The position numbers were made by a program, and so were the translations under genes. Shown in pieces: positions 50,355 to 63,218 of a stretch of DNA of 64,000 nucleotides (its first letter is position 1; each line of letters opens with the position of its first letter). Source of the stretch: an uncultured Mycoplasmatota bacterium. GTDB taxonomy: Bacteria > Bacillota_I > Bacilli_A > RF39 > UBA660. Below the pieces are notes generated by a model. It did not search any database, was not told where the DNA came from, and saw only the letters and a program-made list of their open reading frames with translations. The stretch is taken from NCBI GenBank assembly GCA_948434005.1, contig CAOJEH010000001.1, positions 219,880 through 283,879 of the forward strand, given 5' to 3'.

Positions 50355-51512
50355 ATGAAGAAAAACAAAATTTTAACAATCGCAATTTTATTAGTTACAA
50401 TACTATTTGGAACTTTAGATGTAAATGCTGCTACTACTTATGCAGAAAAGTTACCTGATACTGTAACAAGAGGAGCGATTACATATAGTTATACAACAGG
50501 AACAAATGCTACAGACGGTAAATCTAATTATCCATTTTATAATGAAGATACAACAGGAACTTATTTATTATATTGTTCTGATAGAAATATTCCAAATTAT
50601 GAACATAATGATGTATTAAAGAAAAGTTCAGAAAGATTACCATATGGATATGTTACGATTTTAAAAGGGACATATGAAATTGATTCTATATATGGTTATA
50701 TACTTGATGGTTCAATGAAGGAATATACAGATAAGGAACAAATGAAGAAAATGACAAATACATGGATAACACAAATGGCTCTATGGGGATATCAAGGAAC
50801 AATAACTGATGCAGAAATTAATCAAGATTCATTAAGATATAAAGTTAATGAATCCGCTGGTAATATAAATCTTGCTAATAAAGAGGTTCGTTTATACGGA
50901 ACTCCAGATGCTGAATTAGGAGCTAAAGATACATGGAATAAATATGTAGCTTCGGTTATCCAAAAAGCCAAATCAGCAAAAGATCCAGCCGATGCAAAAC
51001 TAAATGTAACTGCAGATAAAGAAGTTACTTGGACAGAGTCTGATAATATAGCAAAAAGTAACTTAATAAAAGTTGAATCAGAATATGGAGTTGATGCAAC
51101 ATTATCTAAGTTCTCTATATCTTTGGAAAATGCTCCAGAAGGAACAAAAGTTTATACAGAAAATGGAAAAGAAGTTACAAATACTACTAGTATAACAGGT
51201 GGTACAAAATTATATGTAACTATAGATAAAAATAAATTAGATAAAAGCAAGGAATATAATTTTAAATTGAATGCTACAGGAACTATAACTTATGATGCAG
51301 CTTATAAGTATACTAATGATAGCGGTAAACAACCATCAGTTTTAATAGGACCAGAAACAAAAGAAATACAAGGAGTATTGGATTTTAAATTAGTTCCAGA
51401 TACTGCAAGTTCTCTTTCTAAGTCTGTCTACTATATAGGATTTATAATTCTACTATGTGGAGTAGGAATGATATATGCAAATGTTAGACCAAAAAGACAA
51501 GAAGAAGAGTAA
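50355..51512 (+). CDS. Sortase-anchored surface protein with a putative thioester (TQxA) adhesin domain
   Basis: Signal peptide (MKKNKILTIAILLVTILFGTLDVNA). The TQMALW motif matches the TQxA(I/V/L)W thioester-domain signature, with a candidate partner Cys in LLYCSD. The C-terminal sorting signal is VPDTAS, then a hydrophobic stretch and KRQEEE (LPDTA-like). Confidence 0.55.
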   Translation: MKKNKILTIAILLVTILFGTLDVNAATTYAEKLPDTVTRGAITYSYTTGTNATDGKSNYPFYNEDTTGTYLLYCSDRNIPNYEHNDVLKKSSERLPYGYVTILKGTYEIDSIYGYILDGSMKEYTDKEQMKKMTNTWITQMALWGYQGTITDAEINQDSLRYKVNESAGNINLANKEVRLYGTPDAELGAKDTWNKYVASVIQKAKSAKDPADAKLNVTADKEVTWTESDNIAKSNLIKVESEYGVDATLSKFSISLENAPEGTKVYTENGKEVTNTTSITGGTKLYVTIDKNKLDKSKEYNFKLNATGTITYDAAYKYTNDSGKQPSVLIGPETKEIQGVLDFKLVPDTASSLSKSVYYIGFIILLCGVGMIYANVRPKRQEEE

Positions 51513-52152
51513 AAACAATAAAAAAATAACAAAGAGTCAATTATGTTTATTTGGCTCTTTGCTTGTAATTATAGGAATATCACTATTATCAATGGATCAT
51601 ATAAAAGAACTAAAAAAACAGGTTTTTTCAGATATGCAACTATCTTTTATGAATGAAGATAATGTTAATGATATAGTACAAGATGTTCCTAAAGTAGAAG
51701 AAGTAGATAAAAAGACAGAAGAAAAAAAAGAAGAACCTAAAAAGCAGATAGATTTTAGTAAGTATAATGGAATAATAGAAATACCTAAGATAGGTTTAAA
51801 AAGAGGCTTCTATAATTTTGGACATAAATACAACAACATAAAGTATAATGTTACTGTTATTGGTGGATCAACAATGCCTGATGTAGTAAATGGCAACCTA
51901 ATTTTAGCAGCACATTCAGGAGATGCCTATGTTTCCTATTTTGCTTATTTATATAAATTAGGTATAGGTGACTATGTATATATTACTTATAACGGGATTA
52001 TATACAAATATCAAATAGTTAATATTTATAATGTAGCTAAAACAGGTTCAGTAACAATCAATAGAAATGAAGCCAAAACTACATTAACTATGATAACATG
52101 CACTAAGAATAGCGATACTGAACAAACAGTATATATTTCAGAATTAGTATAA
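51475..52152 (+). CDS. Sortase (transpeptidase), likely a class D/YhcS-like housekeeping-type enzyme for the adjacent substrate
   Basis: N-terminal TM anchor, catalytic His in LILAAHSG, the TLxTC motif TLTMITCT and a conserved Arg downstream. Overlaps the end of the substrate gene. Confidence 0.75.
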   Translation: MQMLDQKDKKKSKNNKKITKSQLCLFGSLLVIIGISLLSMDHIKELKKQVFSDMQLSFMNEDNVNDIVQDVPKVEEVDKKTEEKKEEPKKQIDFSKYNGIIEIPKIGLKRGFYNFGHKYNNIKYNVTVIGGSTMPDVVNGNLILAAHSGDAYVSYFAYLYKLGIGDYVYITYNGIIYKYQIVNIYNVAKTGSVTINRNEAKTTLTMITCTKNSDTEQTVYISELV

Positions 52153-52174
52153 GAGTAAATAGGAGGTAAAGACA

Positions 52175-52747
52175 ATGGAAATGACCATAATAGATAAAGT
52201 TGCTTTAATATTTAAATACATATTCTCATCTTTTATGGGGATAGAACTATTTCTACTAAGCTTAATTTTATTCTTATTCACATTTTTAAATATTAAAAAG
52301 AATAATAAAAAAGTTAAAATAGTATCTGCTATACTATGTATAGGCTTTTTAATAGGAATTATTTTGACATATAGATCATATGCAGTAGAAAGTATAGATT
52401 CGTTTATAAAAGCTGTACTAAGTTATCTATATTTCCCATCTATGGTAGTATACTTCTTTATAATTTTATTTGTAACAATAGATATAATAATAACTATATT
52501 TTCTAATAAAATGCCAAGAACTAAGAAGATAGTAAACTCTAGTGTATTAAGCATCTTATATTTTTGTTTTATGGCCGTAATATCTATCGCCCTAACAAAT
52601 GATATAAACTTATCATCAACAGTAAGCTTATATACAAATGATACATTACTTTCATTTATACAAATGAGTAATTTACTATTTGCATTTTGGATTGAATTTA
52701 CAATCCTATATTACTTTTATAAATTTTTACAAAAGAAGTTTGACTAA
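52175..52747 (+). CDS. Hypothetical membrane protein (190 aa)
   Basis: Five hydrophobic segments. Confidence 0.4.
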   Translation: MEMTIIDKVALIFKYIFSSFMGIELFLLSLILFLFTFLNIKKNNKKVKIVSAILCIGFLIGIILTYRSYAVESIDSFIKAVLSYLYFPSMVVYFFIILFVTIDIIITIFSNKMPRTKKIVNSSVLSILYFCFMAVISIALTNDINLSSTVSLYTNDTLLSFIQMSNLLFAFWIEFTILYYFYKFLQKKFD

Positions 52748-54715: not shown

Positions 54716-55873
54716 ATGAAAAGAATTATTAAACTATTTATAATAGGACTATTTATTATACCTATATCTGTATTTGCAAAGGAAGAAAGTAAGGAATTAA
54801 TTCCTAATGCTACATCTGGATTGCTTATGGAACAAACAACAGGGGAAATAATATTTGAAAAAGATAAAGATAAGAAAGTCGCGATAGCATCTATGACTAA
54901 GATGGTAGCGCAAACTATAATATTAGAAAATATAGAGAACGGTAAAATAAAATGGACTGATATAGTTACAGTTAGTAAAAATGCAGCTGATATGGGAGGA
55001 TCTCAGATTTACTTAACAGCTAATGAGAAAATGAGTGTAAAGGACTTATTTAAAGGTATTTCTATGGCAAGTGCAAATGATGCTACAGTTGCAATGGCTG
55101 AATATATCGCAGGTACTGAAGAAAAATTTGTAGAACAAATGAATAAAAAAGTAAATGAATTAGGTCTTAAAAATACAAAATTTAAAAACGCAACAGGACT
55201 TGATGAAGAGGGTCATTATTCATCTGCTTATGATATGGCAATAATTGCAAAAAACTTATTAAATCATGAAAAAATATTAGATTTTTCCTCAGTATATGAA
55301 GACTATTTAAGAGAAAATACTGAAAATAAATTTTGGCTTGTAAATACCAATAAATTAGTTAGATACTATAAAGGCGCAGATGGATTAAAAACAGGTCATA
55401 CTGATGCCGCTAAATATTGTCTTGCTGCAACAGCTAAGAAAGATGGTATGAGACTAATTGCAATAGTTTTAGGTGAAGAAGTAAGTAAGGTAAGAAATAG
55501 TGAAGCAATGGCACTTCTTGATTATGGTTTCAATAATAAAAAAATGACTACTATAAAATCTAAAGGCGAAGTAGTAAGAGAAATATCTTTTGATAAAGGA
55601 AATAAAGATAAAATATCAGTAATTCCTAAAAATGATATAGGTGTATTACAAGATAAAAATACAAATAAACATGAATATTCATATAAAGTGAAAATAAATG
55701 ATACCAAACTACCTTTAAAAAAAGGAGATAAAGTAGGTACTATAAATGTATATGAAAAAAATAAACTTGTAACTACAGGTGAATTAATATCAAATACAAA
55801 TGTAGATAAACTAAGTTATCTAGAATTATGTAAGGAAATGTTAAAAAATTCAATATTAGGAATTATTAAGTAA
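54716..55873 (+). CDS. dacA: Serine-type D-alanyl-D-alanine carboxypeptidase (PBP5-like)
   Basis: Signal peptide, then SxxK active site ASMTKM, SAN motif (SANDA) and KTG (KTGHT). Confidence 0.85.
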   Translation: MKRIIKLFIIGLFIIPISVFAKEESKELIPNATSGLLMEQTTGEIIFEKDKDKKVAIASMTKMVAQTIILENIENGKIKWTDIVTVSKNAADMGGSQIYLTANEKMSVKDLFKGISMASANDATVAMAEYIAGTEEKFVEQMNKKVNELGLKNTKFKNATGLDEEGHYSSAYDMAIIAKNLLNHEKILDFSSVYEDYLRENTENKFWLVNTNKLVRYYKGADGLKTGHTDAAKYCLAATAKKDGMRLIAIVLGEEVSKVRNSEAMALLDYGFNNKKMTTIKSKGEVVREISFDKGNKDKISVIPKNDIGVLQDKNTNKHEYSYKVKINDTKLPLKKGDKVGTINVYEKNKLVTTGELISNTNVDKLSYLELCKEMLKNSILGIIK

Positions 55874-56044
55874 AATAATACAAAATATAGTTTATAATCT
55901 TATGATATTATTTCGAAATGAAGTAATATCATTTTAAATGTCAAATTGTTTTTCTAAAATTAGTAAAATATAATAAAAGAGTTGTAAAAATAATTAATAG
56001 GCTTTATTATATTACTATAAGATATTGTAAATAAGGAGGAAAGT

Positions 56045-56635
56045 ATGAAAGAAAAAAGAAATATTATAGTATTTACTATAGCCATTGCAATTATTGCATC
56101 AATAACAGCAGTAGGAATTGCCTATGCTTCATTTTCACAAACATTAAAAATTAATGGTAATGCTACAGTAAGGACAGCAACATGGAAAGTAAAATTTTCA
56201 AATTTAACTAATGCTACATTAACAGGAACAGCACAAGAAATTACAGCACCAACAATTACTACAAATGATACTAAAATAGGGGATTATTCAGTATCTCTAA
56301 CTAAGCCTGGAGATTCTGTTAGCTATACCTTTGATGTTGTTAATGAGGGAACATTTGATGCAAAAGTTTCTAGTGTCACAATTCCTACACCAACATGCAC
56401 AGGAACAGGAGATAATGCAACAGTTGATGGTAATAATGTTTGTAATAATATTAGTTATACACTAACTTATTCAGATGGAACTAGTGTACAAGAATCAGAT
56501 ACTTTAAATAGTAATGAAACTAAAACAATGAAATTAACATTAAAATACGCTGATGGAATTACATCTGAACAACTACCAAAAAATGATGTAGCTATTAGTG
56601 GCTTAGAAACTACAATTATATATGGTCAATCATAG
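56045..56635 (+). CDS. Secreted protein with a SipW-cognate-like signal peptide (TasA/CalY-class leader), 196 aa, Thr-rich
   Basis: Leader MKEKRNIIVFTIAIAIIASITAVGIAYASFSQTLK: a basic stretch, a long hydrophobic stretch, then G-x-A-Y-A-S-F-S. Compare the TasA ...GGGTWAAFND and CalY ...GGGTFAFFSD cleavage regions. Lies immediately upstream of sipW. Confidence 0.5.
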   Translation: MKEKRNIIVFTIAIAIIASITAVGIAYASFSQTLKINGNATVRTATWKVKFSNLTNATLTGTAQEITAPTITTNDTKIGDYSVSLTKPGDSVSYTFDVVNEGTFDAKVSSVTIPTPTCTGTGDNATVDGNNVCNNISYTLTYSDGTSVQESDTLNSNETKTMKLTLKYADGITSEQLPKNDVAISGLETTIIYGQS

Positions 56636-56766
56636 TATCTAAAATATCGGATACTTATGAAAATAAAAGTGTAATGATTCTGATAACATAATAATTTGTA
56701 TGTATTAATATATGAATAGTTGCACTTTTATTTTATTTTTTAGAAAGATAAAAAGTGGGTGAATAG

Positions 56767-57906
56767 ATGAAAAAAAGTGAAATTAAATTGATATCATTAG
56801 AGATAATATCTATTTTCCTATTAATTATGAATATTTTTACAAAATACTTTATCAATCAGTATATAATAATTATTATACTTTTACTAATGTTTACTATTTC
56901 TTTATTTATTTCTAGCTTCGAAAAAGAAAAAATTTTAGATAAAAAAAGTATAATAAAAAATACGCTTATTTATACTATATCATATTTGATTTTAATATAT
57001 GGAATGGGTATATTTACAGGATATATTAAAACTTCCTATAGTTTAACCTTAGTTGGTATAATAAAGAATATTTTTCCAGTAATTATTTTAATATTAATAG
57101 AGGAATTACTTAGATATCATATTTGTAAAAAAGCAGAAAATAAAAAAATAATAATTATATTATCTATTTTATCGTTTGTACTAATTGATATATCACTTTC
57201 TATTGATTTATACAATTTTAATGATAAATCTAAAATTATAGAATTAATTACAATTACTATATTACCTAGTATATTTAAAAATATTATGTTATCATTTTTT
57301 TCCTATAAATATGGATATAAGGTATGTATAGTTTACCAGTTGATAACAAATATATATTTATATATTATGCCAATATTTCCTAATTTATCTATATATTTAG
57401 AATCTATATTAAAAATATTATTACCTATATTTGTTGGTACACTTATTTATCTTAGATTCAAGAAAATAACTATAAAAAGTTTTAGAAATAACTCTAGACT
57501 CTTAAAGATAATAACAGGTATAATTATAGTAATGACTATAATTACTATAGTTTTATATAGTAATCTATTTCCCTATACAATAGCGGTTATAGGAAGTGGT
57601 TCAATGAATCCTAATTTAAAAAGAGGAGATATGATTTTAATAGATAAAACATATCATGAAAAAACAAATAAGTTGAAAGTTGGTCAAGTATTAGTCTTTA
57701 AAATAAAAGATACTATATATACACATAGAATTGTAAAAATAGATAAAATAAATGGAAAATATTCTATTTTAACAAAAGGAGATAGAAAAGGACAAGCTAT
57801 AGATACTTGGACAGTTACAGAAGATGATATTATAGGAATAACAAAACTAAAAATTCCTATGATAGGATATCCAAGCGTTTGGTTAAAAGATATATTGGAG
57901 GGATAA
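56767..57906 (+). CDS. sipW: Archaeal/ER-type signal peptidase I (SipW family) fused to an N-terminal ~190-aa polytopic membrane domain
   Basis: The C-terminal 180 aa carry the SipW core GSGSMNPNLKRGDMILIDK...HRIV...KGD, with Ser/His catalytic residues of SPase I, S26B type. The N-terminal half has about 6 TM segments that ordinary SipW (~190 aa) does not have. Confidence 0.7.
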   Translation: MKKSEIKLISLEIISIFLLIMNIFTKYFINQYIIIIILLLMFTISLFISSFEKEKILDKKSIIKNTLIYTISYLILIYGMGIFTGYIKTSYSLTLVGIIKNIFPVIILILIEELLRYHICKKAENKKIIIILSILSFVLIDISLSIDLYNFNDKSKIIELITITILPSIFKNIMLSFFSYKYGYKVCIVYQLITNIYLYIMPIFPNLSIYLESILKILLPIFVGTLIYLRFKKITIKSFRNNSRLLKIITGIIIVMTIITIVLYSNLFPYTIAVIGSGSMNPNLKRGDMILIDKTYHEKTNKLKVGQVLVFKIKDTIYTHRIVKIDKINGKYSILTKGDRKGQAIDTWTVTEDDIIGITKLKIPMIGYPSVWLKDILEG

Positions 57907-57908
57907 AA

Positions 57909-59063
57909 ATGAGTAAAGGGAAAATACAATATCAAAGTAAAGATAAATCATATAAAGTAAAAACAGTAAATAAAAAGAAAATATTAAGAAAAGGAACAGT
58001 ATTAAAATTATTGATTATACCTTGTTTGCTAATTCTACTGTTATCATTATTACTACTTAATAGTTCTATCGAAATTAAGGGTAAATCAGCAAATGTTGGT
58101 TATAATGAAATAGGAGATGTTGATTACAAAGTATATCTAAAGGATAATAATTATTATGATTCTAAATATTTAGATAGCGGTATGCAGTATGTAGCAAGTC
58201 TAATTAGTAGTGTTAATACAAAATTTAATTATGAAGTACATTCTGAAAAAAATCTGGATTATAAATATACATATAACATTGTAGGTGATTTAGTTATATA
58301 TGATATTAATGATTCATCTAAAATATTATATACTAAACAGTATAATTTACTAGATTCTAAAACAGAAAATTTAAGTTCAAATAATATTGTTATAAATGAA
58401 GATCTAGATATTGATTATGATGAGTATAATAATTATGTTAACTCTTATAAAAGAGATTATGGTATTAGTGCTGGTAGTAAATTAATTGTAACTATGAATA
58501 TCAATGTAAACGGAAGTAATAATAAAATACAAAAAAAATTAAATCATAAGAATAAATTACAAATTGAAATACCATTATCAGAACAAACACTTAATATTAA
58601 TATTGCATCAGATAAGATAAATAATAAAGAAAGATTATTTACTTTAACTGGTCCAGTAATAACAAATAAATTCATTTTTGTTATAGGATTACTTTTACTA
58701 ATAATATCACTTATCAGTTTAATTATTTCTATATGGAAATTTACTGCTTATAAAAAGGAAAATATATATATTATAACATTAAATAAATTTTTAAGAGATT
58801 ATGATCGTTTGATAGTAAATGCAACAGATAGTATTAGTGAGAAAAAATTTGAAAGAGTAATACCGGTAAGTAGTTTTACAGAATTAGTTGATGCAGCTGA
58901 AAATAATAGAACATCCATAATATTCTTTGAAGCAATAGCAGGTGAAAAGAGTTTCTTTTTAGTAATTAATGATAAAACATTATATAAGTATAGATTAACT
59001 AAAGCTTATCTAGAAGGAAATCCTGATGCAGAAGAATTAAAAGATACAAAAGGAAAAAAATAA
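57909..59063 (+). CDS. Hypothetical bitopic membrane protein of the SipW locus (385 aa)
   Basis: Start set at MSKGKIQ (GGAGGG RBS). TM1 at ~aa 30-50, a large N/D/Y-rich extracytoplasmic domain, TM2 (FIFVIGLLLLIISLISLIISIW), then a ~120-aa cytoplasmic C-domain. Confidence 0.45.
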   Translation: MSKGKIQYQSKDKSYKVKTVNKKKILRKGTVLKLLIIPCLLILLLSLLLLNSSIEIKGKSANVGYNEIGDVDYKVYLKDNNYYDSKYLDSGMQYVASLISSVNTKFNYEVHSEKNLDYKYTYNIVGDLVIYDINDSSKILYTKQYNLLDSKTENLSSNNIVINEDLDIDYDEYNNYVNSYKRDYGISAGSKLIVTMNINVNGSNNKIQKKLNHKNKLQIEIPLSEQTLNINIASDKINNKERLFTLTGPVITNKFIFVIGLLLLIISLISLIISIWKFTAYKKENIYIITLNKFLRDYDRLIVNATDSISEKKFERVIPVSSFTELVDAAENNRTSIIFFEAIAGEKSFFLVINDKTLYKYRLTKAYLEGNPDAEELKDTKGKK

Positions 59064-59656
59064 TGAAAGTAATTGATTATATTAAAAATAGGAAATTATT
59101 ATTTTCAATACTTGGATTATTTCTTGTTATATCCTTTGTATCTATTTCCTATGCATCTATGAATACATCTATGATGATAACAGGTGATGCATATGTTAGA
59201 GTGGATGAAGAAATAAGGGTAGTTGGAATTAAATTTTTAAATGTAGAAAATGATGCTTATGAGACATATAATGCTAAGTATTCAAAGAATTCTACTAATA
59301 TGTATATAACACTGCCCAATATAAATTCTAAAATTACTTATCAAGTAGAAATAGAGAATAAATCAGATCATGTATATTTAGTTAGTGATATTATAGGAGA
59401 ACTAATTAATCCCAATATTACATATACAGTAGAAAATGGTATAGTAAAGGTAGTACCAAAGAAATCCAAGATAACATTAAATATTACTTTTCATTATAAG
59501 GATGATAATTTACCGGCTGATATTACACAAATTTCTACAATAAATTATAAATTTGAAAGGCCTACTGCATCTCATTTAGAATTTGATAATTCTAATGTAA
59601 ATACAAACTGTATAGATGTTCAATGTGCACTAGATGAATTATATGAAATATTTTAG
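59063..59656 (+). CDS. Secreted protein with a SipW-cognate-like signal peptide, 197 aa
   Basis: Leader MKVIDYIKNRKLLFSILGLFLVISFVSISYASMNTSM, hydrophobic then S-Y-A-S-M. Similar in size to the 56045 protein. Start overlaps the previous stop (TAATG). Confidence 0.45.
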   Translation: MKVIDYIKNRKLLFSILGLFLVISFVSISYASMNTSMMITGDAYVRVDEEIRVVGIKFLNVENDAYETYNAKYSKNSTNMYITLPNINSKITYQVEIENKSDHVYLVSDIIGELINPNITYTVENGIVKVVPKKSKITLNITFHYKDDNLPADITQISTINYKFERPTASHLEFDNSNVNTNCIDVQCALDELYEIF

Positions 59657-59670
59657 AAAGAGTGATAACT

Positions 59671-60627
59671 ATGCATAGAAAAAATTTTTCCTTTTTAATT
59701 ATAGGATTGACAATAGGAATGTTAATATCAGGTATAGGAGTATATGCAACAACTATTCTTTCTAGTAGTGAAGTATCCTATGATAACAGTAAATCAAATT
59801 CGTTATCTAATAATGTTCAAGGTTCAATAGAAGAATTATATAAAAAGTCAAGTAATTGTACAACAGGATCTTGTTCGCTAACACAGTCAAACTTTTATGT
59901 AGAATATACATATAATCAAACAAGTGGGGCAAGTAACTATTGTGTAACCGGAGATGAAGCAACTTGTACTAGAACAGACTGTTATACTTCATCAGCAAAA
60001 ACTTGTCCTCCAGGAACTATTATTGATTATATTGTAAGTGGAACAAATACTAGAGTAAGATTTCATGTTATAAAAGATAAAGGAAAAACTATGACAATGC
60101 AATCACAAAAAAATACAATTTATAATTTGGCATGGGATTCATCAGGCGTCAATACAAAAGGACCAACAACAATATTACCACAATTAGAAAAAGCAACTAG
60201 TAGTTGGACTAATGTAGAAGACCAAACTTATACAATGGGGGAAACAGTATTTAAAGATAATGCTTTTACGGGATGTAGTAGTTATAATTCATGTACAGAA
60301 AATAAATATACATTAGGTAGTAAAACAGTAAAAGCAAGAATGATAACAGTGCAAGAAGCAAACACTTTTGGGTGTACCACTTCTAATAGCTCTTGCCCTA
60401 TATGGATGTATAATTATACATATGGTGCTATGAGCTATGGTGGGACAGTAGATGATAATATAGAAAGAACTATGCATAATTATGGTTATTGGACAATGTC
60501 CTCATATCAATTAGATACTATACATGCATGGTATATTGCCAAAAATGGACATATATATGCTAATTATAGTACAGGAACCAATCTTCTTTTATATGGTGCA
60601 AGAGCAGTAATAGAGGTGTCTAAATAA
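59671..60627 (+). CDS. Cys-rich secreted protein, tandem paralog A (constant N-domain + variable C-domain)
   Basis: Start at MHRKNF (AGAGTGA RBS). Leader ...GIGVYATTILSSSEV. Mature region is rich in Cys, Thr, Ser and Tyr (CTTGSC, CVTGDEATCTRTDC, CPPGT...). C-terminus is GARAVIEVSK. Confidence 0.5.
   Translation: MHRKNFSFLIIGLTIGMLISGIGVYATTILSSSEVSYDNSKSNSLSNNVQGSIEELYKKSSNCTTGSCSLTQSNFYVEYTYNQTSGASNYCVTGDEATCTRTDCYTSSAKTCPPGTIIDYIVSGTNTRVRFHVIKDKGKTMTMQSQKNTIYNLAWDSSGVNTKGPTTILPQLEKATSSWTNVEDQTYTMGETVFKDNAFTGCSSYNSCTENKYTLGSKTVKARMITVQEANTFGCTTSNSSCPIWMYNYTYGAMSYGGTVDDNIERTMHNYGYWTMSSYQLDTIHAWYIAKNGHIYANYSTGTNLLLYGARAVIEVSK
59757..60072 (+). repeat. 316-bp segment 100% identical to 60822..61137 (copy 1)
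   Basis: Checked base-by-base: identical from tctttctagtagtgaag... to ...agatttcatgttata. Identity falls to ~75-80% immediately on both sides. Confidence 0.95.
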
Positions 60628-60664
60628 TTGCTAGAGTACAATGGACCTCGATCCTTTTTTTGAA

Positions 60665-60694
60665 TTGACAAAAGCCTCTGGGGGGGGGTATGAT
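60665..60694 (+). promoter_or_regulatory. Sigma-A-type promoter TTGACA-N18-TATGAT with a G9 homopolymer in the spacer (candidate phase-variation switch)
   Basis: TTGACA sits at 60665-60670 and TATGAT at 60689-60694. The spacer aaagcctctgggggggggg holds 9 consecutive G at 60680-60688. The ATG of paralog B is 33 nt downstream, after a GGAGTGG RBS. Confidence 0.5.
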
Positions 60695-60726
60695 AAAAGT
60701 ATAAAATAAAAGTGCGGAGTGGTATA

Positions 60727-61674
60727 ATGAAGAAATTTATAAAGAAAAACTACAAAATAGTAATAGCATTTATATTAGGAGGAATAGTATTTGGAGGTAT
60801 AGGAGTATATGCATCAACTAATCTTTCTAGTAGTGAAGTATCCTATGATAACAGTAAATCAAATTCGTTATCTAATAATGTTCAAGGTTCAATAGAAGAA
60901 TTATATAAAAAGTCAAGTAATTGTACAACAGGATCTTGTTCGCTAACACAGTCAAACTTTTATGTAGAATATACATATAATCAAACAAGTGGGGCAAGTA
61001 ACTATTGTGTAACCGGAGATGAAGCAACTTGTACTAGAACAGACTGTTATACTTCATCAGCAAAAACTTGTCCTCCAGGAACTATTATTGATTATATTGT
61101 AAGTGGAACAAATACTAGAGTAAGATTTCATGTTATACAGGATAAGGGAAAGACTATTACAATGCAGACACAAAAAAATATAATCAATAATATAGCTTGG
61201 TATGCGGGAGATATTAATAGTTATGGCCCTACCAAGGTACTACCAATGTTAGAAAATGCAACATCAAGTTGGAGTAATGTAAATACTCAAACCTATACTA
61301 TAGGAAATAGTTTTTTGTCAGGATGTAGTGAATATAATTCATGTACTACTAATAAATATACATTAGCCCAAAGAACAGCAAAGGCTAGACTGGCTACAGT
61401 GCAAGAATTAGCTAACGTGGGGTGTACTAGGGCTACTGGTTCTTGTCCTAAATGGGTTTACAATTATTTATATAGCTCTACCGATTTTGGAGGTTCAGTT
61501 TCTGATACTACCACAGATGGAGGAGACGGAAGATATGGTTATTGGACAATGAATGCTTATACTGGTAGTTCTGATTTTGTTTGGCATATTGGTCGGCAAG
61601 GGCGTCTTTGGTATACAATTTCTCCTACATATCCCGGTATTGGTGCTAGAGCAGTAGTAGAGGTTTCTAAATAA
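60727..61674 (+). CDS. Cys-rich secreted protein, tandem paralog B
   Basis: Start at MKKFIKK (GGAGTGG RBS). Leader ...GGIGVYASTNLSSSEV. Residues 33-137 are identical to paralog A (encoded by the identical 316 bp). The C-domain is ~55% identical and ends GARAVVEVSK. Confidence 0.5.
   Translation: MKKFIKKNYKIVIAFILGGIVFGGIGVYASTNLSSSEVSYDNSKSNSLSNNVQGSIEELYKKSSNCTTGSCSLTQSNFYVEYTYNQTSGASNYCVTGDEATCTRTDCYTSSAKTCPPGTIIDYIVSGTNTRVRFHVIQDKGKTITMQTQKNIINNIAWYAGDINSYGPTKVLPMLENATSSWSNVNTQTYTIGNSFLSGCSEYNSCTTNKYTLAQRTAKARLATVQELANVGCTRATGSCPKWVYNYLYSSTDFGGSVSDTTTDGGDGRYGYWTMNAYTGSSDFVWHIGRQGRLWYTISPTYPGIGARAVVEVSK
60822..61137 (+). repeat. 316-bp segment 100% identical to 59757..60072 (copy 2)
   Basis: Same as copy 1, at an offset of 1065 bp. 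Confidence 0.95.
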
Positions 61675-61682
61675 ATAAGAAA

Positions 61683-61710
61683 ATAGAATGATTGCAATTC
61701 TATTTTTTTT
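61683..61710 (+). terminator. Terminator after paralog B
   Basis: atagaat-gattgca-attctat followed by ttttttt. Confidence 0.6.
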
Positions 61711-61832
61711 AATTTATAATAAAATTAGTGATTAAAAAGATGATAAAAGTGAAAATGATGAATAAAATATAGAAGAATATGATATAGAGCTAAATATGAT
61801 ATGATAAAAAGTAAAAGGTAGAGGTGGTAATC

Positions 61833-63218
61833 ATGTATGATGTTGCAATAATAGGCGCAGGACCCGCAGGACTTTTTTCTGCATATGAGTTAATTACTAA
61901 AAACAAAGATTTAAAGATAGTATTATTAGATAGAGGACACTTTGCAGAAAATAGAGTATGTCCAATGAATATAGGTAAAGAAAAATGCCTAAATTGTAAT
62001 CCTTGTTCTATATTATCTGGATATGGAGGAGCAGGAACATTTTCTGATGGAAAATTAAATTTTATACCAAAACTAGGTAAAAGTGATTTATTTAAATATA
62101 TGAGTATAAGTGAAGCGAATAAATTAATAGATGATACAGAAGCTATATTTAATAAGTTTAATATGGATGCTAAAGTGTATCCTACTAATATGGATGAAGC
62201 AAGAAAAATAGGCGAAGAAATTACAAAAACAGGCGCAAATCTTTTATTAATAAAACAAAAACATTTAGGCAGTGATATGCTTCCAAAATATATTGAAGAT
62301 TTTTCTAATTATTTAAAATCAAATGGGATAGATATGAAGGAAAAAACTGATGTTTCTGATATTTCGGAAAATAAAGATAAAACTTACGATATAATATATA
62401 ATAAAAGCAAAAAAGTTACTGCAAAGAAAGTTATAGTCGCACCAGGAAGAACAGGTGCCAAATGGGTACAAGAACTTGCTGATAAATATAATATCCCATA
62501 TACATCACAAAGTATAGAAATAGGTGTAAGAGTAGAAGTAAGAAAAGAAATATTAAAATCAATAACTAGTGTTATATATGATCCAACTATTTTTATTAAA
62601 ACAAAAACATATAATGATGAGATAAGAACATTTTGTACTAATCCAGGAGGCTTTGTGGCAAAAGAAAATTACTATGGATATATTTGTGTAAATGGTCATT
62701 CTTTAAAAAATATTAAATCTGATAATTCAAACTTTGCATTTATTTCTAAAGTAAGATTAACAGAACCTGTAACTAATACTCGTGAATATGGTGAGTCAAT
62801 TGCTAAAATTGCAAATACTCTAGGTGATGGGAAACCAATAATACAAACTTTAAGAGACTTAAGGATGGGAAGAAGATCAACATGGAAAAGTATAGATAAA
62901 GGGTTTATAGAACCAACTTTAAAAGATTGTGTTGCTGGAGATTTAGCACTAGTTATGCCACATAGAATTATTAAAAATATTTTAGAAGGTTTAGAAACAC
63001 TAGATAAAATAATTCCAGGAGTTAATAATGGAGAAACTTTATTATATGGACCAGAGATAAAGTTCTTTAGTAATGAAATAGATACAGATAATAATATGAA
63101 ATTAAAAAATCATAATATTTATTTTATAGGTGATGGTGCTGGTAAAGCAGGTAATATTGTAGTAGCAGCTGCAACAGGATTAATCGCAGCAAGAGATATT
63201 TTAAAAAATAATAAATAA
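61833..63218 (+). CDS. FAD-dependent oxidoreductase (COG2509-like uncharacterised FAD-dependent dehydrogenase)
   Basis: N-terminal Rossmann dinucleotide motif VAIIGAGPAGLFSA...LLDRG. Length ~460 aa. Start chosen at MYDVAIIG (AGAGGTGG RBS) rather than the upstream GTG. Confidence 0.65.
   Translation: MYDVAIIGAGPAGLFSAYELITKNKDLKIVLLDRGHFAENRVCPMNIGKEKCLNCNPCSILSGYGGAGTFSDGKLNFIPKLGKSDLFKYMSISEANKLIDDTEAIFNKFNMDAKVYPTNMDEARKIGEEITKTGANLLLIKQKHLGSDMLPKYIEDFSNYLKSNGIDMKEKTDVSDISENKDKTYDIIYNKSKKVTAKKVIVAPGRTGAKWVQELADKYNIPYTSQSIEIGVRVEVRKEILKSITSVIYDPTIFIKTKTYNDEIRTFCTNPGGFVAKENYYGYICVNGHSLKNIKSDNSNFAFISKVRLTEPVTNTREYGESIAKIANTLGDGKPIIQTLRDLRMGRRSTWKSIDKGFIEPTLKDCVAGDLALVMPHRIIKNILEGLETLDKIIPGVNNGETLLYGPEIKFFSNEIDTDNNMKLKNHNIYFIGDGAGKAGNIVVAAATGLIAARDILKNNK

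Follow-up and report, generated by a model that had tools for sequence, protein, structure and literature searches.

Concerted evolution by RecA-dependent gene conversion is established for tufA/tufB of Salmonella and Escherichia coli and for the neisserial opa genes. In pilE/pilS of Neisseria, related copies of a gene for a surface protein undergo gene conversion, leading to antigenic variation of the pilin, and homopolymers in promoter spacers function as switches: poly-A in vlp of Mycoplasma hyorhinis, and poly-G/C in porA and opc of Neisseria meningitidis. Here, we describe two tandem paralogs (referred to as A and B) in a stretch of 64,000 nucleotides (the window) from an uncultured Mycoplasmatota bacterium (GTDB lineage Bacteria; Bacillota_I; Bacilli_A; RF39; UBA660; assembly GCA_948434005.1, contig CAOJEH010000001.1, positions 219,880 to 283,879 of the forward strand). 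The two genes share a 316-bp segment of perfect identity (the tract), and a poly-G run is located in the promoter-like site of B. The evidence argued for recent gene conversion of the 5' third between two old duplicates, with the perfection of the identity probably contributed by the assembler.

Three further groups of described systems resemble parts of this locus. Phase variation through simple sequence repeats is treated in general terms in PMC5084427 and PMC6321876. The N-terminal domain of the immunoglobulin A (IgA) protease from Thomasclavelia ramosa (IgAse; PDB 9qa6) is a novel enlarged C-type-lectin-like domain, or CTLD, that is dispensable for IgA cleavage (PMC12237041) and is annotated as DUF6273 (PMC12402451), while Legionella Lcl, which contains a C-terminal Lcl_C/DUF1566 domain (PDB 8q4e), is a glycosaminoglycan-binding adhesin (PMC11162425). 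A signal peptidase together with a DUF5305 protein constitutes the TafD/TafG pair of the archaeal Taf pili, relatives of TasA fibers (PMC11821415, PMC12337348).

Evidence for gene conversion in the 5' third of A and B

The longest exact match between A and B was the tract, at an offset of 1065 bp (Table 1). Identity changed sharply at both borders: on the left, a stretch of 27 nt contained 2 mismatches and the leaders farther upstream were approximately 45% identical, and on the right, 10 mismatches were found in the next 54 nt (~81% identity), followed by values of 40-75%. The two proteins were 64-65% identical overall; the value was 61.5% for A residues 135-230 but 40.7% for residues 231-318, and both proteins ended in GARAV(I/V)EVSK. 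The coordinates of both genes, the position and offset of the perfect match, and the shared ending, as given in the original prediction, were all confirmed in the sequence as deposited. The exact B protein was also present in public assemblies.

In a codon alignment, the tract (codons 30-134) was free of differences, both at its 69.3 synonymous sites and at its 245.7 non-synonymous sites. For codons 135-318, on the other hand, the proportion of synonymous differences (pS) was 0.544, with approximately 0.97 synonymous (dS) and 0.40 non-synonymous (dN) substitutions per site; the resulting dN/dS of 0.42 gave no evidence of positive selection in this diverged part. Approximately 38 synonymous differences were expected in the tract, and the chance of finding none was, by our own arithmetic, ~2e-24 (0.456^69). 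Therefore, constraint at the protein level and chance were both excluded as the cause of the identity, and purifying selection alone was rejected on the synonymous sites (0/69.3). An origin without any recombination, through extreme purifying selection or through a recent partial duplication of this segment alone, might draw on the somewhat higher conservation of the N part between species (77% vs 68-69% in the C part); however, in addition to the missing synonymous differences, the orthologs in a related species were just 76-77% identical in the same segment, and an in-frame swap of one segment within an older paralog is conversion or replacement by definition. We regard such an origin as extremely improbable.

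The locus of this related species (L073) contained three genes: F445, in which the CTLD is fused to a homolog of P4 (the secreted protein encoded immediately upstream of A), G327, and H323. Over A residues 231-318, A was closest to G327 (67.8 and 65.9% identity at the nucleotide and amino acid levels, respectively) and B to F445 (65.4 and 57.3%), compared with 56.2 and 40.7% between A and B. The N part, in contrast, grouped by genome: A and B were 100% identical at both levels and G327 paired with H323 (84.3 and 84.6%), while A shared 76.9 and 75.0% with G327, and 76.2 and 73.3% with H323. Since the C-terminal parts of A and B were closer to separate L073 genes, the duplication that produced A and B predates the split of the two species; the N part must then have been homogenized after speciation, and very recently in the lineage of the window. 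The longest exact run among the L073 genes was at most 21 nt, and thus the conversion of the tract itself was lineage-specific. These results supported the gene conversion that had been proposed for the 5' part.

A similar bias was found across the family. Among 30 canonical family genes from 10 genomes, the nucleotide identity of the N part exceeded that of the C part by 12.4 points within genomes (58 pairs) vs 3.1 points between genomes (377 pairs; Mann-Whitney p=7.6e-20), with the reservation that these pairs are not independent, which weighs against the strength of the comparison. The highest within-genome pairs showed N- and C-part identities of 91.6 vs 61.8, 89.9 vs 61.1, and 93.1 vs 71.0, and near-identical partial tracts were also present in other metagenome-assembled genomes (MAGs). 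The closer resemblance of same-genome paralogs in the N part than in the C part was seen in eight genomes besides that of the window. Homogenization of the 5' part thus appears to be recurrent and a trait of the family, in agreement with the recurrence originally suggested.

In the proposed mechanism, non-reciprocal homologous recombination would have copied the 5' third between A and B, while the remainder of each gene retained its old divergence. We infer this recombination from the match itself, the lack of synonymous changes, the incongruence between regions, and the family-wide excess in the N part. A first likely cause is that the N part, as the more conserved part, may be a better substrate for recombination. 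Taking the genes, the conversion, the collapse of the tract, and the poly-G switching (see below) jointly, we consider it likely that A and B are old tandem duplicates, the 5' third of which (codons 30-134) was recently homogenized by intragenomic gene conversion. Non-reciprocal exchange between paralogs, tracts without synonymous divergence, sharp borders, and paralogs that are more alike than orthologs are features shared with the tuf and opa genes; in contrast to these, A and B were homogenized in the 5' third only, they belong to an uncharacterized family, and their exact identity may be inflated by assembly.

Table 1. Positions of the genes and sequence elements of the A/B locus in the window
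Feature	Position	Strand	Description
P1	56045..56635	+	196-aa secreted protein; camelysin/TasA-like PF12389, E=0.024, below cut-off
SipW/archaeal-type signal peptidase I	56767..57906	+	Long N-terminal membrane domain; TIGR02228, E=3e-19, above cut-off; PF10502
DUF5305 protein (TafG-like)	57879..59063	+	PF17231, E=2.3e-20
P4	59063..59656	+	197 aa; leader, immunoglobulin (Ig)-like beta-sandwich, C-terminal motif SHLEFDNSNVNTNCIDVQCALDELY
Paralog A	59671..60627	+	318 aa; ATG start, ribosome-binding site (RBS) AAAGAGTG upstream; final gene in the operon; follows P4 by 14 nt
Identity tract, copy in A	59757..60072	+	Codons ~30-134; exact 316-bp match
Biallelic sites among assemblies (11 sites, three blocks)	59847; 59903; 59964/79/94-97/60003/09/10	+	Mirrored at +1065 (60912-61075) in B
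Promoter-like site of B	60665..60694	+	TTGACA-18 nt-TATGAT; 11/12 matches, best + strand score in 55800-62000
Poly-G (G9) at the end of the B promoter spacer	60680..60688	+	Putative phase-variation switch for B
Paralog B	60727..61674	+	315 aa; ATG start, RBS GGAG; same architecture as A; own promoter
Identity tract, copy in B	60822..61137	+	Exact match to the A copy, offset 1065

Comparison of assemblies and the perfection of the identity

The window was compared with 14 other assemblies of the same organism (15 in total), which were essentially identical to it outside the tract. Within the tract, 11 biallelic sites fell into three blocks separated by 56 and 61 nt, each mirrored in B, and the third block (59964-60010) contained 9 changes in 47 nt; the variation among assemblies was confined to 164 bp (59847-60010) of an otherwise clonal genome. 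Contig L061 (9274 bp) differed from the window at 59903 and 60968 only and L063 (5660 bp) at 59847 and 60912 only, while L062 (6708 bp) differed at ten tract sites in each copy and by one extra G in the poly-G run, and at nothing else. Seven of the 8 possible block combinations were seen among the 15 assemblies. In all five contigs that held both genes, A and B carried the same haplotype, and there were five different haplotypes among these contigs. L001-L003 ran through the A tract and stopped 77 or 55 nt into the B tract, and L004 stopped 89 nt before it; these four contigs, which contained A only, all had the haplotype AGC, and the window carries its exact complement, GAT.

By default, metaSPAdes goes up to k=55, at which blocks separated by more than 55 nt give rise to bubbles of their own. 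A and B may differ at 11 positions in every genome, with each bubble being merged independently by the de Bruijn assembler; a merged edge would be traversed twice, giving A = B by construction. The flawless 316-bp identity is, on this pattern of the sequences, probably a collapse by the assembler, with a true identity of ~96.5% and a longest exact run of ~90 nt. The contigs that stop inside the B tract (L001-L003) or shortly before it (L004), the single haplotype in the contigs with A only, and the complementarity between GAT and AGC all support collapse, while real variation would require a polymorphism confined to 164 bp, recombination between blocks that are 56 and 61 nt apart, and full re-homogenization each time. 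A genuinely perfect identity of the tract is possible and, in our judgment, doubtful. Within-sample alternative haplotypes were sought in public metagenome contigs, and the scan for the tract gave 0 matches; the Logan contigs (k=31) L059, L060, and L064, which cross the repeat, were judged uninformative on linkage.

Two observations weigh against a collapse as the whole explanation. AGC was over-represented (7/15), which is unexpected from a purely random resolution of bubbles. The block-3 allele also tracked the length of the poly-G run, C occurring with G10 in 5 of 6 cases and T with G9 in 4 of 4 (Fisher p ~0.02, in a post hoc test of our own), and this hints that some of the tract variation is a genuine polymorphism among strains that was copied to both paralogs. 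The corresponding alternative is that the identity is real and dynamic: very frequent conversion would keep the tracts of A and B identical, and the mirrored variants would be true, shuffled, and re-homogenized, in which case the locus would be a high-frequency recombinational variation system on a surface lectin. Such a process would account for the agreement between A and B in all two-copy contigs despite their five haplotypes and for the link between block 3 and the poly-G length, and the flanks identical over 5.6-9.3 kb, the A::B hybrids in three samples and B::A hybrid in one, and the contingency tracts carried by the family (see below) also fit. However, it needs four-gamete recombination over ~60 nt followed by complete re-homogenization everywhere, without any heterogeneous intermediate having been caught; de Bruijn assemblies with merged bubbles force A = B; the spacings of the blocks lie just above k=55; and all four contigs with the A tract alone carry one haplotype. 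We regard this alternative as unlikely and favor the collapse of the tract.

Conversion does not depend on the choice between these two readings. Even with the 11 variable sites counted as real differences, the pS of the tract is ~0.09 or lower vs 0.54 elsewhere, and it is thus still a conversion tract whether the identity is perfect or 96.5%. On the other hand, the tandem arrangement or the tract could itself have been produced by misassembly, as a duplication artifact or a chimeric join of two loci; several contigs are interrupted at the tract or the poly-G run, and chimeric-looking contigs exist (L005, L057-L060). This is very improbable because A, the intergenic region, and B with unique flanks recurred in five independent contigs of different samples, A and B differed strongly outside the tract and each had orthologs in a related species, and even under collapse the copies are at least 96.5% identical vs ~63% for the rest. 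Of the assembly artifact that had been named as a possible refutation, the part concerning the duplication was not borne out, while the exactness of the match was probably produced by the assembler.

In species-representative MAGs, approximately one in four family loci was located within ~200 bp of a contig end (L018, L019, L026, L029, L041, L045, L047, L049, and L052-L056), which suggests that the repeated segments or poly-G tracts of the family routinely break short-read assemblies.

Hybrid genes were found among public protein clusters and in the corresponding contigs. The proteins P0129 and P0130 (contigs L057, L058, and L059; three assemblies) consisted of the A leader, the tract, and the B body, and these contigs corresponded to the window minus exactly 1065 bp between P4 and the flavin adenine dinucleotide (FAD)-oxidoreductase gene. 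One hybrid of the B leader, the tract, and the A body (P0125) was found in L060, a contig that is a circular permutation of the 1065-bp unit. The shared tract may permit unequal crossing-over to give A::B hybrid genes; the hybrids arose either by such an exchange within the tract or because assemblers mis-threaded the repeat.

Two contigs showed other unusual junctions. In L058 (1223-2644), an open reading frame (ORF) for an IS110-family transposase continued in frame into the DUF5305 gene at its 3' end, with P4 and the A::B hybrid following just downstream, and represents either the insertion of an insertion sequence in that strain or a chimeric contig. In L005 (1-4593), gene A was joined to a gene for a 386-aa protein exactly at a poly-G promoter module common to both loci. 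The A region of this contig was the same as window 59248-60688 except for the tract sites, and its 5' end had a diverged P4 N-terminus. A second genomic copy of A was considered for L005 and dropped, since the normal context of the 386-aa gene contains no A gene; the contig is either chimeric or a rare rearrangement.

Poly-G tracts in promoters and at 5' ends

The G9 run between A and B was the sole run of G or C of at least 6 in the 64-kb window, which has a GC content of 26% and in which 0.003 runs of G9 or longer are expected. Its length was G9 in the window, L001, L061, L063, and L064, and G10 in L002-L004, L006, and L062, which were otherwise identical; some of this length variation could be a sequencing or assembly error at homopolymers. 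In L002 (window 60688-60720), a 33-bp deletion between GTAT repeats removed the -10 region and RBS of B and placed G10 directly before TATAATG, a -10-like hexamer overlapping the start codon; this contig has low coverage (2.4x), and the deletion may be an error.

The same promoter module with G10-G13 preceded the gene for the 386-aa protein, which has a TasA-like N-terminus and a DUF1566-like C-terminus, at a second locus of the same organism (L065 7938-7986; L066-L072). Contigs L069 and L070 began right after the G tract of this second locus. The family loci of other MAGs, 562 kb in total, contained 28 runs of G or C of at least 8, and 20 of them were located between -400 and +90 of family ORFs (20 of the 57); these intervals make up ~5% of the family-locus sequence (binomial p <1e-15, by our estimate). 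The tracts of other MAGs (L007-L056) were 8-12 in length and lay 35-180 nt upstream of the gene or within its first 41 nt (for example, at L025 7875, L030 7889, L032 7869, and L020 7838). Several were in the spacer between -35 and -10, and four genes of a five-gene tandem array in L034 carried TTGCAA-N10-G9-TATAAT (7936, 9022, 10051, and 11065). In MAG CAKPLP01, the poly-G was located in a short upstream ORF, AGGAGG..ATG..TGTTCTAGT-Gn-CACTTTACTAGAAC, with an inverted repeat on both sides; L008, L010, L011, L022, L043, and L054 were also listed among the entries of this type. In L009 (7976-7984) and L016 (7975-7985), the upstream ATG comes into frame with the complete family ORF when the run changes by one G, and translation would be switched on or off in this way.

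The placement of the poly-G tracts and their length polymorphism point to the classical pattern of contingency loci, with a presumptive effect on expression. A slipped-strand change between G9 and G10 in the spacer would vary the promoter of B and, hence, switch the expression of B on and off. The arrangement is similar to those of vlp and porA/opc in that a run of polymorphic length, G9 or G10, is located between the -35 (TTGACA) and -10 (TATGAT) sequences, with similar tracts at many paralogs of the family; it differs in its host, a low-GC gut bacterium of the Bacilli that has not been cultured, and in that its switching is a prediction.

Protein family and predicted fold

A and B had no match to a Pfam, NCBIfam, or PHROG family, and neither the family profile nor P4 had a significant match in a sequence search of the PDB. 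The family comprised more than 220 proteins, all from MAGs of uncultured low-GC gut "Bacilli", "Clostridia", and "Tenericutes", with copy numbers of up to 13 or more per MAG. An AlphaFold model built on 82 homologs (predicted local distance difference test (pLDDT) 87, and >90 from residue ~80 to 318) consisted of a transmembrane/signal helix (6-23), a short helix (49-61; NVQGSIEELYKK), a poorly predicted linker, and one continuous globular domain. The CTLD core fold was present in the predicted globular domain of A/B, and its closest fold matches were the N-terminal domain of the T. ramosa IgAse and Legionella Lcl; intimin, invasin, and the variable proteins TvpA, Mtd, and TaqVP of diversity-generating retroelements (DGRs) were also among the matches listed.

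The original prediction had described the tract as a constant N-domain set against diversifying C-domains. This division did not hold: the tract starts at the end of the leader (residue ~30), spans the helix and the linker, and breaks off at residue 134, within strand 127-136 of a single high-confidence globular domain.

In sequence, A and B did not match PF19789 (DUF6273) or PF07603 (Lcl_C), and sub-threshold matches among the 82 members were limited to 3 with DUF6273 and 2 with Lcl_C. As judged from the model, the family is structurally related to, but separate from, DUF6273/Lcl_C and constitutes a separate CTLD sequence family. Compared with the IgAse N-terminal domain and Lcl, the A/B domain stands alone behind a leader and helix motif and is without a significant sequence match. 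The predicted fold indicates that A and B, each secreted and composed of a leader, a short conserved helix motif, and one enlarged CTLD, are most likely ligand- or glycan-binding surface proteins, for which an adhesin-like role is plausible.

The C-type-lectin fold raises the question of a DGR or of cassette-type antigenic variation. The logic of adhesin or pilin antigenic-variation families had been invoked for this locus, together with the suggestion to look for additional silent copies elsewhere in the genome. As in pilE/pilS, A and B show conversion between related copies of a surface-protein gene. In contrast to pilE/pilS, both genes are complete, the converted segment is conserved rather than variable, and the window contains no promoterless cassettes or donor repertoire: tblastn and blastn of A and B (these two genes only being used as queries) detected no third, silent, or partial copy in the 64-kb window. 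A pilE/pilS-like system was rejected on these grounds, since A and B were the only copies in the window and each had a start codon, RBS, and leader. A DGR was rejected because the substitutions were not adenine-specific, the differences between alleles being of all kinds (T/C, C/T, T/G, and C/G); in addition, both copies of the repeat belong to coding sequence and occupy the N part instead of the C-terminal ligand-binding part, and a search of the seven genes between 56045 and 63218, the scanned part of the window, gave no reverse-transcriptase domain. Even with a fold that occurs in DGR variable proteins, the probability of either mechanism is next to negligible. The adhesin part of the earlier proposal fared better than its cassette part, the C-type-lectin-like fold resembling adhesin domains, the poly-G contingency tracts, and the A::B hybrids (three assemblies) all being in partial agreement with it.

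Gene neighborhood

A and B are located in, or adjoin, an operon that specifies a SipW-type signal peptidase, a DUF5305 protein, and small secreted proteins of the Ig-like type. A signal peptidase of the SipW/TafD type and DUF5305 (TafG), two components of a Taf-type locus, were both present. With regard to a pilin subunit, the P4 model gave generic Ig-like matches only, and P4 was not called as a TasA-like pilin; the camelysin match of P1 was sub-threshold.

The mature N-terminus of A and B, SEVSYDNSKSNSLSNNVQGSIEELY, was homologous to the C-terminal motif of P4, SHLEFDNSNVNTNCIDVQCALDELY, which is nearly invariant in the P4 family (59564-59647 aligned with 59767-59850: SHLEFDNS..DVQCALDELY in P4 and SEVSYDNS..NVQGSIEELY in A/B). 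In a protein from a related species (P0018, L073 528-1865), a P4 homolog was fused to the CTLD exactly at this shared motif, so that P4 and A look like a split P0018, or P0018 like a fusion. CTLDs fused to genuine camelysin/TasA-like domains were also found in relatives (P0073, E=1.7e-10; P0082, E=7.8e-14). We regard both kinds of fusion as firm links between P4-type proteins and the CTLD. The shared motif might be a docking or oligomerization element that A and B must keep compatible with P4, and a second possible cause of the homogenization is that the N part may have to fit a common partner, the motif being also the P4 C-terminus and the fusion joint in P0018. Two points weigh against this connection: the fit to a partner is a conjecture, with P4 having a generic Ig-like fold that was not recognized as TasA-like, and many family genes in other MAGs are not beside SipW/DUF5305.

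The locus thus resembles TasA/Taf loci in its archaeal-type signal peptidase I, DUF5305 protein, and small secreted beta-sandwich proteins, and in the CTLD-TasA-like fusions of other organisms. It differs in the generic Ig-like P4 and sub-threshold P1, and in the many family genes outside such loci.

Elsewhere in the window, a sortase gene (51475-52152) was flanked by unannotated ORFs of 385 and 190 aa (50355-52747), and the leader of B gave a weak tblastn match at 50355-50435; this region may be another surface-protein locus.

Biological implications

As an instance of concerted evolution by gene conversion, a known process, the tract is textbook biology and adds little in itself. Of more practical consequence, mirrored "SNPs" (single nucleotide polymorphisms) in a repeat of otherwise identical metagenome assemblies reveal collapsed variants of paralogs, and call for caution on perfect identity in MAGs.

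A stronger version may be stated, which we consider quite improbable: the mirrored variants are real, and two tandem lectin genes exchange and re-homogenize short patches very frequently, forming a three-layer variation system together with the hybrids and the poly-G switch. If true, this three-layer variation would act on the heads of a SipW/DUF5305-dependent surface structure and would be part of a CTLD family, large, phase-variable, and so far undescribed, of uncultured Bacilli that are related to Mollicutes.

Independently of that version, A and B represent an uncharacterized multi-copy family of secreted CTLD proteins in uncultured gut Bacilli, the nearest structural relative of which is the N-terminal domain of the T. 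ramosa IgA protease. The poly-G tracts in promoters and at 5' ends would make many members of this family candidates for phase-variable factors through which gut commensals bind the host or glycans.

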